From IMG/VR virus record IMGVR_UViG_2648501390_000008: 6,130 nucleotides of DNA. One strand, given 5' to 3'. Source of the stretch: a virus. Taxonomy: Duplodnaviria; Heunggongvirae; Uroviricota; Caudoviricetes. The notes below the pieces were generated by a model. It was given only the letters and a program-made list of their open reading frames with translations. It was not told the DNA's origin and searched no databases. Numbering within the stretch: the stretch's first letter is position 1; every line of letters begins with the position of its first letter. Below are positions 1 to 6,130 of this stretch, one piece after another. The translations under genes and the position numbers were made by a program.

Positions 1-1039
1 CCTGAGGTCCGGTTGCCCCCACCGGGCCAGCCGCACCTGTTTCTCCTTTCGGTCCCTGTGGGCCTGCCGGACCTGCCGCACCGGTATCTCCCTTTGGACC
101 CTGTGGACCTGCATTTCCCGTCAGACCGGTCTCTCCCCGCTCTCCCCTGTCGCCTTTCGGCCCCTGCGGGCCTGCCGGACCAGCATCACCTGCCGGTCCC
201 CGCTCACCGGTTGCCCCGACAGGACCGGTGTCGCCACGCTCTCCTTTATCTCCCTTCGGCCCCTGTTCCCCCTTTGGCCCGGGAGGTCCCACCACGGTGG
301 GGATTCGGTTTACGGCCTCTTCCGCCGCTATCCTGCTTTGTTCCGCTGACTGTGCGCTTTCTGCTGACTCCCGGGCTTTTTCTGTTGCGGTCGTTGCATC
401 CCTGGCTGCATTACCGGCTGCACTTTCTGCCATCTTTTTTGACAACTCAGCATCTGTTGCACTTTGTAATGACTCACTGGCTTTTTGAGCGGCCGCAGAA
501 GCCGAGGACGAGGACGCATCCTCTGACTGCTTTGCTGAGGCTGCACTTTCCGTCGCCTGCCGGGCTGACTCCGATGCATCCCCTGCAGAAGTCTCAGCAT
601 TTACTGCACTCTTTTCCGCCTGGCCGGCTGATATACCCGCATTCCTCGCTGACGTCTCTGCCTCTCCGGCATTCTTCTTCGCCTCCTCAGCGTGACGCGC
701 TGCCTCTTCCACCATCAGTTCAAAACGTCGCAGTGCCTCCGGACGGGCATCATCCTCCGTCATGGCACCGAGAAAATCATTCAGCGTACCGGGTTGAGAA
801 TCTTCATACACGGTGATGGTCCCGGCATGTGACGGCGGGAATCCCTCCACCAACAGAATAACGCTGTACTGACCGTACTCAACGTCCATACTGTAACGCC
901 CGGCTTCATCCGGATTTTCTGAGGCCAGCGTGTTCACCACCACAGTGGTACTGTTACGTTTTGCTTTCAGCTGGATTGTGCAGTTCTGTACCGGTTTTCC
1001 TGTGCCGTCTTTCAGTACACCTGAAATCTTTACTGCCAT
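1..1039 (-). CDS. stf: Side tail fiber protein Stf, N-terminal ~346 codons; the 3' end of the gene lies beyond the left edge of the window
   Basis: Hand translation of the minus strand from the ATG at 1039..1037 gives [20 protein letters not shown]..., then ...[29 protein letters not shown]..., which matches the lambda Stf N-terminus as I remember it. The frame stays open through the segments I translated (1039..981 and 790..2), with the last full codon at 4..2; 980..791 was not translated by hand. The gene is absent from the ORF track only because it has no in-window stop. It sits downstream of lom, as in lambda. Confidence 0.9.
2..289 (-). repeat. Collagen-like Gly-X-Y coding repeat inside stf (at least 96 consecutive triplets, continuing past the window edge)
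   Basis: Hand translation of the stf frame gives [96 protein letters not shown] with Gly at every third position. At the DNA level this is an imperfect 9-nt periodic repeat (ggNccNNNN on the coding strand). Confidence 0.85.
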
Positions 1040-1103: not shown

Positions 1104-1703
1104 TCAGAATTTATAACCGACACCCACGATGAAACCGTCAGTGCGCCAGTCACCACTGCCGGAGCCTTCATAAGCAATATCAATGGCCACGGATTCGGTC
1201 GGGTTAAACTGCACGCCAGCCCCCCACGCCAGAGACGTGTTGCTGTGGCGACCGTCATCACTTCCGGTCAGCACATCGTGCGTTTTCCCCTTGTTGTCAG
1301 TTACGCGGAGATAATCCCCGGAGAAAGTCGACACACGGCTGTAAGCCACACCCGCCATCGCATACGCGCTGAACCATTCATTCACGCGTACAGACGGCCC
1401 CGCCATCACGCTGAACCAGCGGTTACGCACGGAATCTTCATGCCAGCGGGTATCGCTGTAACGGGTAAGCTGGCGATTCTTGTCTCCTGCATAGCTGAAT
1501 GACGTCACCAGCCCCAGCGTGTCCGTAAATTCATAACGGTATTTCACGTTAATCCCGTTAAGATTATCGCTACCGGGAGCGTTCGTCCGGGCATGAAGAT
1601 ACCCCGCGCTCAGTGTGGACTGATGTTCAGACGCCCATGCAGGCGCACCGGATACGGACAGACAGATGGCTGCGGACAAAATGGCTGCACAAACTTTACG
1701 CAT
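1104..1703 (-). CDS. lom: Lom outer membrane protein (Ail/Lom/PagC-family beta-barrel), 199 aa
   Basis: The ORF translation [59 protein letters not shown]...[10 protein letters not shown] is near-identical to lambda Lom from memory. It has a Sec-type signal peptide ending AWA-S and a C-terminal aromatic residue typical of outer membrane beta-barrels. RBS GAGAGG lies ~6 nt upstream of the ATG. Position between J and stf is as in lambda. Confidence 0.95.
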
Positions 1704-1727: not shown

Positions 1728-1751
1728 AAAAAAGGCACCATTTCTGGTGCC
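1728..1751 (-). terminator. Rho-independent terminator between J and lom
   Basis: On the minus-strand RNA: stem GGCACCA / UGGUGCC (plus-strand 1734..1740 pairing with 1745..1751), GAAA tetraloop, then UUUUUUAUU (plus-strand A-tract 1728..1733). It starts 22 nt downstream of the J stop (1773..1775) and ends 24 nt upstream of the lom ATG. Confidence 0.6.
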
Positions 1752-1772
1752 CTTATATGGGTTATAACAATT

Positions 1773-4700
1773 TCAACGAATACTGATGCCGGAAGCGGCT
1801 TTTTTGGTCACAATCACCGTACAGTCGGTGATATTACCTGCCCACTGATTGCCTTTATGGAAAACCTTAAACTCCAGAGTGACGCTTCCCCTGCCACTCG
1901 GCATATCAATAACCGCACTGTAGCTACCGGGAATGGCCCCTTTAGTTTCTCTGGATGCGATTAATACACCGTTTTTGCGAACTTCAAAACCATAACCCGT
2001 GTAACTTGTACCTCCCGGGTTATTACCACTTCCCGGATAGCTATACGCTATTCCGTTAAAGATAATGGGCGGAATAATGATTTGACGGTCAAAGTTATGA
2101 TCATCGCTGATGGTGACTGTAACCGTCCCGTTTGGTGTTTCCGTGTTACCCCACGTACCAGCCTGTTTCGGAAATGATTTGGATACAGCTTTAACGAAAT
2201 CCCCTCTGACTTGGGTCGCCTCCAGCATGCCCTTAATCGTACAGTTTTCATTTACCGTGACATTGTTGAGCGTCCCGGCGTTCGCATTCACACTGCCACT
2301 GATATCCGCATTTTTAGCAGTCAGCTTTCCGTCCGGTGTCAGGGAAAATGCCGGTGGATTGCCACCGCTGGTAATGGTGGGGGCCGTCAGGCGTTTCAGG
2401 AACACGTCATTCATGAATATCTGATCGCCCTGACCAACAAACATCGGTTTTGTGTTGCCATTCGCAGGATTAACCATCGCAATCCTGTCCGCCGCCAGCA
2501 GCACCTGACTCTGCATGCCGTCAGGGGTGTTCTCAATACCGGCACCAATACCCGCGATATAAAGGCGTCCGTCCTGCATCTGCTGCAGCTTCACAGCCCA
2601 CATGCTGTTCAGGTTATTATTTGTATCAACCTGAACTTTCTGTATCTGCTGGATTGCCGCACTCTGGTCTTCCAGTTTTTTATTGACGGTCTGCGTGATT
2701 TCATTGCTGACATTCGTAATGGACGTCCTGATTTCAGCCAGGTCCGGCGCAAGCTGACCGTTATCAATCTGCGTCCACAGCTCCTGGGCCAGATGTGTTT
2801 TCCCGATTTCTCCTTTGAAAAAATCCAGGTAACCTTCCGCATCATCGCTCGCCTGACCGACAGCCTCCACGAATGCCGATTTGCCAACGGTGTTCACACT
2901 GCGGATATAAAAGTAATAATCATGGCCCGGTTTGATATTGATACTGGCGGCTATCCAGTACAGCGCCATACCAAGATAACGCGCGCTGGTTTCAACCTGC
3001 CGGATATCGGCAATCCGCTTTTCCGAGAACCAGAACTCAAACTGTACCGTCGGGTCATAAACAGCAAGATGCGGCGTGGCGGTTATCTGAAAATAGCCCG
3101 GCGTCAGCTCAATCTGTGACGGCGCTGCCGGTGCGGCAATCCTGAACGATACCGACGCCGGATCGCCCTGCTGCCCCCACGCATTTACCGCCCGGACTGT
3201 CAGCCTGTAGTTCCCCGGCGCCAGTTGCGTGAAGCGGTATGTGGTTTCCGCCGTCCGGGCCGTGCTGACCAGCCGCTCACTGCCGTCATCCGCGGCCACG
3301 GTCAGGCGAAGCATAAAACTCACGCCCTTCACCACCTTCGGCGTATCCCAGCGCGCCAGCACCTGATACTCCCCGCTGTCTGCGGTGACTTCGGCAGTCA
3401 GGTGCTGCACCGCTGGCGGCGTGACACCATTCACCGTGCCGCTCTGGTCGCCATCAAAGTGCGCCCCGTTATCCACGATAGCCTCTTTTTCAGGCACATG
3501 CTGCACGGCAGTGATAGCATACGTGCCGTCATCGTTCTCACGGATACTCACACAGCGGAACAGGCGCTGGCGCAACGTCGGCAACTTCAGCCCCCACACG
3601 CTGTATCCAGCAACACCGTCAGGAACACGGCTCACTTTCACCTGCACGCCGTCGGTGACGGACTGAACCTCCACGCTGACCGGATTGCCACTTCCGTCAA
3701 CCAGGCTTATCAGCGTGGTACCGGAGGATGGCAGCGTGATTTCACGGTCGAGCGTCAGCGTCCGGGTCTGGCTGTTCACCGCCAGCACACGACCACCGGT
3801 GCTGATACCGGCATAGTCATCATCACAGATTTCAACAACATCACCCGGTACATGGCGAAGCCCTTCTGCACCCACGCTGAAATCCACGGTCTGCGTTTCC
3901 AGCAGTTCCGTTTTAATCAGCCACAGCCCGGCGCGGTGTGCCTGCCCCCGACTGGTACAGCCAAAGGCATCCATCTTCGTGACATTACGACCATAACGGG
4001 CAATGGCCTGCGTATCCTCAACAAGCTCTGTCGCCGTCTCCCAGCCGTTGTCCGGGTCAATCCAGTTCACCTCAACGGCATTATGGCGGTCCTTCAGGGC
4101 GCTGAAGCTGTAGCGGAACGGCGCGCCATCATCCGGCATCACCACATTACTGCGGTTATAGGTCCACACCTTATCCGATGGCCGGTCCTGCACGAACGTC
4201 AGCGTCTGCCCGTTCCATACCGGCATACAGCGCATCGCCGAGCAGAAATCACTGAGCACATCCCACGCCTTGCGCTGTGTGGTCAGGTACGCATTACAGG
4301 TGATGCGCGGCTCCGTGCCGCCAGAGCCATCCGGTACCGACTGGTCGCAGTACTGGCCGATGACATACAGCGCCCATTTATCCACATCCGCCGCACCAAG
4401 ACGTTTCCCCATGCCGTAGCGCGGGTGGGTCAGCATGTCCCACAGACACCAGGCCATGTTGTCGCTGTACGCTGGCTTAAACGTTCCGTCCCAGATACCG
4501 CTGTATTGCCGCGTCTGCGGGTCATAGTTCGACGGCACCTGCAGAATGCGCCCGCGAAGATGATAATTACGGCTCACCTGCTGGCTGCCGAACTGCTCAG
4601 AGTCCACCTGCACGCCGACCAGTGCCGTGTTCGGGTAGCACTGTTTCACATCGATGATTTCGGTATACGAGGACCAGATTGTTTTGTTCTGCAGCTGGTC

Positions 4701-5270
4701 TGTGGTGCTGTCCGGCGTCATCCTGCGCATCCTGATACTGAACGGTCGCGGCGGCAGCTTATCCACCACCACCGAGGCCAGATACTGTGAGGTGGTTTTG
4801 CCCTTAATGGTGATGTCTTTTTCCGTCACCCAGCCACCATTACGTTGTATCTGAACCAGCAGGCGAACTTCCGACGGATTCCGGTCCCCCTTTGAAGTGG
4901 TTTCCACCAGTGCCTGCACACCGAAGGTCAGGCGCAGACGGTCGATGTTTGCCGACGTGATGGTCCGGGTGAGCGGATTGTCATATTTTAATTCTGCACC
5001 GATAACGGTTTCTGAACCGGAGGATTCAAATCCCTCCGGCGGTGTCTGCTCCTGCTCACCTGCCCGGAACACCACCGTGACGCCGGAGATGTTGGTATTC
5101 CCCTCACTGTCCAGCACCGGCGTACTGTTCAGCAGCACGCTTTTTAATCCATCTACCGGACCTTCAACCGGCCCTTCGCTGATGGCATCGATCACACTCA
5201 GCAACTGCGTGGACTTCAGGTTGTCCTTCGCTTCGCGCGGGGTATGCCCCTTACTGCTTCCTTTACCCAT
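1773..5270 (-). CDS. J: Tail tip / host specificity protein J (central tail fiber), 1165 aa, with a divergent C-terminal region
   Basis: ORF of 1165 aa beginning [34 protein letters not shown]..., matching the lambda gpJ N-terminus as I remember it; lambda-like through about residue 820. RBS GGAG...GAGGA upstream of the ATG. A 60-nt gap separates it from the upstream I gene, as in lambda. Confidence 0.97.
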
Positions 5271-5330: not shown

Positions 5331-6002
5331 TCAGCGACCAATCACCACAACCTGACCACCGTCCCCTTCGTCTGCCGTGCTGATCTCCTGAGAAACCACA
5401 CGTGATCCCACGCGCATTTCACCGTACAGAACGGGCAGAACATTGCCCTGGGCAACCATGTTATCCAGTGAGGAGAAATAGGTGTTTTGTTTGCCGTTAT
5501 CCGTTGTCTGTGTACGGGGAGTTCTGGCTTTCGGTGCCAGCATCTGGGCCACACCACCGAGCACCATACTGGCACCGAGAGAAAACAGGATGCCGGTCAT
5601 ACCACCGGCCCCAATGGCTGCCCCCCACGCTGCAAGGGTGGCTCCGGCAGTAAAGAATGATCCGGCAATGGCGGCTGCTCCCAGGACAATCTGGAATACG
5701 CCACCTGACTTGGCCCCGGCGACTCTGGGAACAATATGAATCACAGCGCCATCAGGCAGAGTCTCATGTAACTGCGCCGTTAACCCGGACGTGCTGACGT
5801 CCCGCCCGGCAATCCGTACCTGATACCAGCCGTCGCTCAGTTTCTGACGAAACACCGGGACCTGTGTGGACAGTGCGCGGATGGCTTCAGCCCCCGTTTT
5901 CACACGAAGGTCGATGCGGCGGCCAAATCGTTGCAAATCCCCGTAAAGGCAGATGCGTGCCATGCCCGGTGACGCCAGAGGGAGTGTGTGCGTCGCTGCC
6001 AT
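5331..6002 (-). CDS. I: Tail assembly protein I, 223 aa
   Basis: ORF translation MAATHTLPLASPGMARICLYGDLQRFGRRIDLRVKTGAEAIRAL... is near-identical to lambda gpI from memory, with the same length (223 aa). Its start overlaps the 3' end of K by 103 nt, as in lambda. RBS-like GAGAGG upstream. Confidence 0.97.
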   Translation of the reverse strand: MAATHTLPLASPGMARICLYGDLQRFGRRIDLRVKTGAEAIRALSTQVPVFRQKLSDGWYQVRIAGRDVSTSGLTAQLHETLPDGAVIHIVPRVAGAKSGGVFQIVLGAAAIAGSFFTAGATLAAWGAAIGAGGMTGILFSLGASMVLGGVAQMLAPKARTPRTQTTDNGKQNTYFSSLDNMVAQGNVLPVLYGEMRVGSRVVSQEISTADEGDGGQVVVIGR

Positions 6003-6130
6003 TTGTCGGTATACCTCTCTCGTTTGCTCAGTTGTTCAGGAATATGGTGCAGCAGCTCGCCGTCACCACAGTAAATGGCGGCATGATTCGGCACCGATGA
6101 ACCAAAACAGCACAGCAGCACATCGCCCGG
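5900..6130 (-). CDS. K: Tail assembly protein K, C-terminal portion (NlpC/P60-like region); the 5' end lies beyond the right edge of the window
   Basis: The minus-strand frame is open from the window edge (...PGD then VLLCCFGSSVPNHAAIYCGDGELLHHIPEQLSKRERYTDKWQRRTHSLWRHRAW...) to the stop at 5902..5900. The M at 6121 in the ORF track is an internal GTG codon, not the true start. Position immediately upstream of and overlapping I is as in lambda. The H..IY and LLHH motifs are consistent with the distal half of an NlpC/P60 fold. Confidence 0.9.
   Translation of the reverse strand, partial: PGDVLLCCFGSSVPNHAAIYCGDGELLHHIPEQLSKRERYTDKWQRRTHSLWRHRAWHASAFTGICNDLAAASTFV

Follow-up and report, generated by a model that had tools for sequence, protein, structure and literature searches.

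In phage lambda, the J protein (gpJ) forms a trimer at the tip of the tail, which opens upon receptor binding, as seen by cryo-EM, and its shaft helices span residues 809 to 861 (PMC11101478). Lambda binds LamB. The receptor of phage 434 is OmpC, and replacement of lambda J by the 434 tail-fibre gene changes binding from LamB to OmpC (PMC11101478, PMC3509688); a lambda h434 imm21 hybrid has been sequenced (PMC9119081). The specificity region of J (residues 960 to 1132) has a phylogeny that is discordant with the rest of the protein and represents an independent evolutionary module (Maddamsetti et al., PMC6646904). Within it, indel and entropy peaks at lambda residues 1012, 1048/49, 1077/78 and 1107 were proposed to be specificity loops, and nested indel peaks located upstream of the region were left unexplained (PMC6646904). 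Engineered gpJ chimeras in which prophage receptor-binding domains (RBDs), known as A8 and 1A2, are grafted at lambda residue 964 give OmpC-dependent delivery (Brödel et al. 2024, PMC11338833). The modularity of J specificity, the 434/OmpC host-range allele and the use of the conserved fibre segment as a chimera junction are already published, and the gene described here adds no new mechanism.

We have analyzed the J gene found in a 6,130-nt stretch of phage DNA (the window). Very probably, it codes for a functional central tail fibre of the lambda family that was built by recombination, with a lambda hub, a long shaft of the phage 21 type and a tip of the 434 type, and with OmpC as the most likely receptor.

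Gene content of the window

All the genes of the window are on the minus strand and in lambda order, K(3')-I-J-lom-stf(5'), and all of them are open (Table 1). The same order is present in lambda, 434, cdtI and the prophage of E. coli strain 104 (Ec104), and K overlaps I as it does in lambda. The J reading frame is uninterrupted and no frameshift was found along its 3.5 kb. Its Pfam domain models, all above the curated cut-offs, appear in the expected order (FNIII-A_GpJ, Phage-tail_3, Ig_J, Ig_J_second, Phage_Tail_Tip and Ig_GpJ_C), and phmmer matched it to the lambda gpJ structures 8iyk and 9e7m with E=0. The domain series, the identity of the N-terminal part (see below) and the K-I-J-lom-stf context all identify the product as a lambda-type tip attachment protein. 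The stf part contains 32 collagen-like G-X-Y triplets (nt 2-289), and at the position equivalent to the hairpin 3' of J a terminator is annotated in the phage 21 record.

Such a gene could also belong to a defective or cryptic prophage, in which J is no longer used for infection and its receptor specificity is a fossil. The median number of places with J-like sequences in an E. coli genome is 2 and the maximum 12-15, many of these loci sit in cryptic prophages, and the window holds tail genes only. Against this stand the open genes in lambda order and the J gene free of frameshifts, and also the presence of J genes 97-99% identical in inducible, plaque-forming phages, so that we regard a fossil J as very unlikely and a functional fibre as the better description.

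Table 1. Features of the J region, with coordinates in the 6,130-nt window
Feature	Position (nt)	Strand	J residues	Basis
stf (side tail fibre), N-terminal 346 aa, continues beyond the window	1..1039	-		translation start as in lambda Stf
lom, Ail/Lom outer-membrane beta-barrel	1104..1703	-		Pfam Ail_Lom E=2.3e-121, full length
Terminator-like hairpin and T-run, shortly 3' of J	1731..1754	-		consensus scan
J, tip attachment/central tail fibre protein, intact	1773..5270	-	1-1165	ORF list, 1165 aa + stop
Module 3, RBD, 434-type, putatively OmpC-binding	1776..2276	-	999-1165	157/167 identical to 434 J
Conserved island, lower central straight fibre (beta-prism)	2277..2438	-	945-998	51/54 identical to lambda
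Module 2, alpha-helical shaft and upper central straight fibre, phage-21-type long allele	2439..2810	-	821-944	
28-aa (21+7) insertion versus lambda and 434, within the helical shaft	2673..2765	-		pairwise global alignments
Shaft insertion, piece 2	2673-2693	-	860-866	
Shaft insertion, piece 1	2703-2765	-	836-856	
Module 1, hub domains and two FNIII/Ig domains, lambda-like	2811..5270	-	1-820	787/820 identical to lambda
Tail tip assembly gene I	5331..6002	-		Pfam Lambda_tail_I E=7e-29
Gene K, 3' end, C40 peptidase family	5900..6130	-		translation; K/C40 family peptidase annotation in matching records

Mosaic structure of J

Segment identities to lambda gpJ (PDB 8iyk, NC_001416) were calculated from pairwise global alignments. 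Up to residue 820 the two proteins share 787 of 820 residues (96%). Over residues 821-944 the value falls to 44 of 96 aligned positions, with an additional 28-aa insertion, then recovers to 51 of 54 at residues 945-998, and drops again to 68/156 (44%), with five indels, in the segment 999-1165. The break is located directly after residues 809-820 (residue 821 begins at window nt 2810) and can also be seen in the phmmer alignment to 8iyk. This agrees with the first-pass annotation, which had described a mosaic protein, lambda-like for roughly 820 residues, diverging from about residue 821 (nt ~2810), different again along its last ~160 residues (actually ~167) and 33 aa longer than its lambda counterpart (1165 versus 1132 aa, a difference to which the shaft contributes 28 aa and the RBD a net 5 aa). 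The C-terminal end is thus much less similar to lambda than the N-terminal part (68/156 against 787/820). The annotation had also placed a conserved island at nt ~2300-2420; the 46-residue peptide quoted for it is 100% conserved in lambda, but its coordinates were slightly off, the correct ones being about 2280-2417.

The same pattern is found in the DNA. In adjacent windows of 90 nt the identity to lambda goes from 98% to 62% and 28%, rises to 86-94% in the island and falls back to 38-61%, so that the profile consists of steps with no gradient. It has been shown that the RBD is under diversifying selection (PMC6646904), and one could imagine that the C-terminal third of a lambda-like ancestor merely accumulated point mutations and small indels at a higher rate, with no recombination involved. 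However, the identity changes stepwise, with the island (51/54 aa, 86-94% DNA identity) sitting between blocks of 28-64% (shaft side) and 38-61% (RBD side); these blocks are 98-100% identical to different phages (21 for the shaft, Stx2c_PV98 and 434 for the RBD), and the J modules occur in other combinations elsewhere. Gradual divergence, which we consider extremely improbable, is effectively refuted by the steps in DNA identity and by the other module combinations, in favor of recombination.

To build a table of modules, the protein was aligned to nine J proteins (lambda, 434, 21, Lambda_2E9, cdtI, phi458, Stx2c_PV98-693, 2851 and Ec104). As judged from these alignments, the divergent third is made up of two separately exchanged modules, the shaft with the upper fibre and the RBD, with the conserved island between them. 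The complete layout reads as a lambda/21-like hub, a 21-type shaft, the island and a 434-type tip. The first module is closely similar in the other phages (790/820 residues identical to 434, i.e., 96%; 96% to phage 21 and about 96-97% across 21, cdtI, phi458 and Ec104). This hub and FNIII part, essentially that of lambda, would build the tail tip cone.

Helical shaft and upper fibre

The shaft and fibre domains are named here as in the cryo-EM work on lambda (PMC11101478). Residues 821-944 are 98-100% identical to phage 21 (98%), Lambda_2E9, cdtI, phi458 and Ec104, and 35-36% identical to lambda, 434 and Stx2c_PV98. Phage 21 J carries the same long shaft and upper fibre, 28-aa insertion included, whereas 434 J has a short one of lambda type (36% identical over this segment) that lacks the insertion. 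At the nucleotide level, a query covering the long shaft (361 nt, nt 2456-2816) was matched with 95.3% identity. The sequence, with its ...NSMWAVK stretch and 28 extra residues relative to lambda, is that of a phage-21-type long shaft.

No Pfam model covers residues 819-871. The AlphaFold2 (AF2) monomer has helices at residues ~810-824, 826-836 and 841-890, with pLDDT values of 75-87 for residues ~840-879. It should be noted that AF2 modeled single chains of what is a trimer, with pLDDT below 50 across most of the beta-prism, and that these models were used in the fibre and shaft for secondary structure only. With moderate confidence, residues 821 to ~890 are predicted to form an alpha-helical shaft four heptads longer than that of the lambda/434 allele; the 28 residues amount to four heptads, which in a fully helical state would span about 4 nm. 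By these residues, the long allele, which is found in phage 21 and in many prophages of E. coli, exceeds the lambda/434 allele. The 21+7 indel of the shaft may correspond to the upstream nested indel peaks of Maddamsetti et al.

The conserved island

The island is 85-100% identical across the nine J proteins (87% in phage 21) in spite of their differing flanks, and its alignment columns are nearly invariant. Lambda residue 964, the junction of the working gpJ chimeras (PMC11338833), is within it. Both observations point to the island as a probable recombination junction or crossover site. The gene is explained most economically by homologous recombination at two conserved linkers, the boundary at residues 809-820 and the island, by which a functional gpJ would have been assembled from three exchangeable modules.

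Receptor-binding domain

The last ~140 residues are, by sequence and model, an Ig-like RBD homologous to that of lambda. Pfam Ig_GpJ_C covers residues 1029-1164 (E=2.4e-26), and phmmer aligned the domain end-to-end with lambda gpJ, matching A8 gpJ as well. Its AF2 model has pLDDT values of 74-94 per 10-residue block between residues ~1030 and 1159, and the use of the models for fold comparison was confined to this domain. The best Foldseek matches were lambda gpJ, closed and open (8xck and 8xcj), and A8, closed and OmpC-bound (9wca and 9wcb), with E values from 5e-18 to 7e-15. The proposal that the distal end is a diverged homologous domain and no unrelated fusion is borne out by these results, including the comparison of the predicted structure with the lambda RBD. 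The resemblance of the final 14-residue motif to the lambda end, VMVIKKQALGISVV, also holds, with 8 of 14 residues identical; in 434 J the 14 C-terminal residues are all identical to those of the window.

The RBD shares 157 of 167 residues (94%) with 434 J, with no indels and with equal loop lengths at the four specificity-loop positions. Identity is 99% with Stx2c_PV98 and 93% with 2851, and decreases to 44% with phage 21 and 39-44% with lambda. At the nucleotide level the values are 98.8% to Stx2c/Stx1a phages and Perceval, and 91.7-91.9% to 434 and lambda h434 imm21. The RBD types are discrete, i.e., database fragments are at least 89% identical, one representative is at 68% and the others are at or below 49%. 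By these similarities the domain falls in the 434-type (h434) cluster. The LamB-binding RBD of lambda, which belongs to a protein (8iyk, 8xck and 8xcj) of the same domain architecture with a homologous RBD fold and a shaft 28 aa shorter, lacks such close similarity to the window domain, with 68/156 identical residues and with indels at lambda residues 1011, 1051, 1078, 1099 and 1109-1114, which fall in all four receptor-contact loop regions. In the alignment, these indels coincide with the four published specificity-loop hotspots. The A8 domain (PDB 9wca, and 9wcb with OmpC) is a structural homologue, 49-57% identical in the Foldseek alignments. Nevertheless, A8 and 1A2 are other RBD sequence types, with different C-terminal tails and joined to a lambda shaft in the chimeras, so identity of the window RBD with either of them was rejected. 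Phage 21 J has an A8-like RBD that ends in ...ISDLLVVVMKKSTAGISIS.

Among the ten substitutions relative to 434, seven are in or adjoining variable loop regions. The candidate loop changes (window versus 434) are S1032A, Q1036K, A1037V, N1047D, S1077D, Y1078N, S1089R and R1127G. Y1078 and S1089 flank the PGSGNNPGG loop and are rare, being present in 2 of 31 cluster representatives.

Probable receptor

The domain is 94% identical to that of 434, with loops of identical length, so the receptor is most likely OmpC rather than LamB; we consider the assignment to OmpC probable. The expectation that a different allele at the distal end implies another outer-membrane receptor than that of lambda is in line with the similarity, free of indels, to 434 and lambda h434; our nucleotide search of the phage database indicated that the lambda h434 imm21 hybrid carries a 434-type RBD. 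Two examples of such receptors had been named, OmpC and FhuA. The first fits, being the receptor of 434, whose RBD type is found here, and the second is unsupported. In FhuA-dependent lambdoid phages (phi80, N15 or HK022 type), the cor exclusion gene is usually found downstream of J. Here, lom is located directly downstream, and this, together with the 94% identity to the 434 (OmpC) type, makes a FhuA-dependent type unlikely, if only on indirect grounds. A literature search for a published receptor of phages with an RBD at least 98% identical (phi458, Ayreon, cdtI, ev099, the PhiR series, mEp332 and mEp460) found none. A large receptor-screen preprint was discarded as a source, as it covers GpJ of the Drexlerviridae type, another family. 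The PDB searches with J and the RBD included no structure of a 434-OmpC complex.

If the protein works as it does in lambda, the RBD trimer would insert its four distal loops into the trimeric porin, and binding would then propagate along the beta-prism fibre, flip the helical shaft and open the tail tip.

Four point mutations in J suffice for lambda to add the use of OmpF (PMC6646904), so that two RBDs with 94% identity may still differ in receptor or in their range of OmpC alleles. With the same mosaic, the loop substitutions, Y1078 and S1089 above all, could have retargeted the tip to OmpF, a PhoE-like porin or a subset of OmpC alleles. Within the 434-type family, variation is concentrated in four stretches (residues ~1032-1047, 1077-1089, 1125-1129 and 1135-1143) that align with the lambda loop hotspots, and the A8 and 1A2 RBDs each recognize only part of 23 OmpC variants (PMC11338833). 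However, 157 of the 167 residues are shared with 434, the loop lengths are identical, and the closest relatives (98-99%) include phi458 and Ayreon, phages that plaque on K-12 as 434 does. Retargeting therefore seems quite unlikely to us, and OmpC is kept as the probable receptor. A related and speculative idea, which we judge unlikely, is that a 434-type RBD with Y1078/S1089 on a long shaft would be a distinct specificity allele, for particular OmpC variants or a second porin, and that the pairing of shaft and RBD might affect the trigger of tail opening.

Distribution of the modules

We searched the phage database for each of the two modules. The long shaft was found in 67 records and the 434-type RBD in 74 (at least 80% coverage), and only 25 had both, which indicates that the modules assort independently. 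The 434-type RBD (93-99% identical) follows upstream regions of four different kinds (those of 434, Stx2c_PV98, 2851 and the window), and the long shaft (98%) is joined to another RBD in phage 21 and Lambda_2E9.

The particular combination of the window is very common. Of 5426 complete E. coli genomes, 1164 contain the C-terminal 1074 nt of J (long shaft and 434 tip) at 80% coverage or more, the best identity being 99.0%, and the 216-aa C-terminal fragment is 100% identical to a public database cluster of 557 member sequences. Near-identical full-length J genes are found in cdtI, phi458, Ayreon and ev099, of which phi458 and Ayreon form plaques; for phi458, its paper describes plaques on K-12 MC1061 only (PMC9701743). 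In these four phages and in the Ec104 prophage (WP_001695588), J is 1165 aa long and has the same three-module composition, with the C-terminal 1074 nt 95-99% identical to the window and differing by scattered substitutions only. Among them are those at two of the loop positions, D1078/R1089 in these proteins and Y1078/S1089 in the window. We found no full-length match above ~96% to the whole 6.1-kb window, as would be expected from a new shuffle of common modules and no new element.

Implications

The gene can now be labeled with confidence as J, the central tail fibre, with an RBD of the 434 type, OmpC as the predicted receptor and the long shaft of phage 21 type. It also illustrates cleanly how modules are exchanged at the island of the lower fibre, the junction at which lambda particles have already been retargeted. 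Prophages of E. coli very commonly carry the allele, and they include Stx- and Cdt-converting phages, which have it in their tail regions; knowing its probable receptor would help to predict which hosts such toxin-converting phages can infect.

Modular composition of the window

Not a single match above ca. 96% over the whole window could be found among complete E. coli genomes or phage records, the best ones being phage cdtI (96.1%) and E. coli genomes (94.5 to 95.7%). In contrast, single modules of the window have matches of 99 to 100%. Within codons 1 to 820 of J, the closest relative switches every few hundred bases among phages lambda, 434, 21, Lambda_2E9 and cdtI. Both the discrepancy between modules and whole window and this shifting nearest relative indicate fine-scale mosaicism along the entire stretch.

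Features of the window and of the phage 21 record (L008)
Feature	Position	Strand	Remark
stf, side tail fibre gene	1-1039	minus	runs off the window
G-X-Y triplets in stf	2-289	minus
GC-rich hairpin followed by T-run	1056-1077	minus	directly 3' of lom
GC-rich hairpin followed by T-run	1731-1754	minus	directly 3' of J
J codon 1089	2003-2005		Ser
J codon 1078	2036-2038		Tyr
K 3' end/I start overlap	5900-6002		different frames
J of phage 21	L008, 1047-4529

The arrangement of the 3' end of K and the start of I, which share ca. 100 nt, is annotated likewise in lambda. By position alone, the hairpins downstream of J and lom look suggestive of intrinsic terminators; the phage 21 record also has a terminator annotated 3' of J. 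Across the window, terminator-like sites (6 versus 5.5 in shuffles) are not raised in total.

Tail fibre and receptor-binding tip

The N-terminus of Stf within the window is lambda-like; it is followed by an Ala/Ser/Glu-rich stretch and then by 32 uninterrupted, collagen-like G-X-Y triplets, and the gene continues beyond the window edge. The N-terminal part of lambda Stf is not known to have such a repeat. The triplet region is also the GC peak of the whole window (0.69).

At the tip of J, residues 1078 and 1089 flank a PGSGNNPGG loop, one on each side. While the majority of 434-type receptor-binding domains (RBDs) carry Asp (or Asn) and Arg there, the Tyr/Ser pair was common to only two of the 31 cluster representatives, despite which the fragment cluster identical to the window allele has 557 member sequences.

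The RBD of phage 21, with the C-terminal end ...ISDLLVVVMKKSTAGISIS, is in part much like the chain of A8 gpJ (an engineered lambda gpJ chimera with a natural prophage RBD), as judged by eye from two alignments. This chain was solved bound to OmpC of EDL933 (PDB 9wca and 9wcb). If both RBDs are of one type, phage-21-type tips may bind OmpC too.
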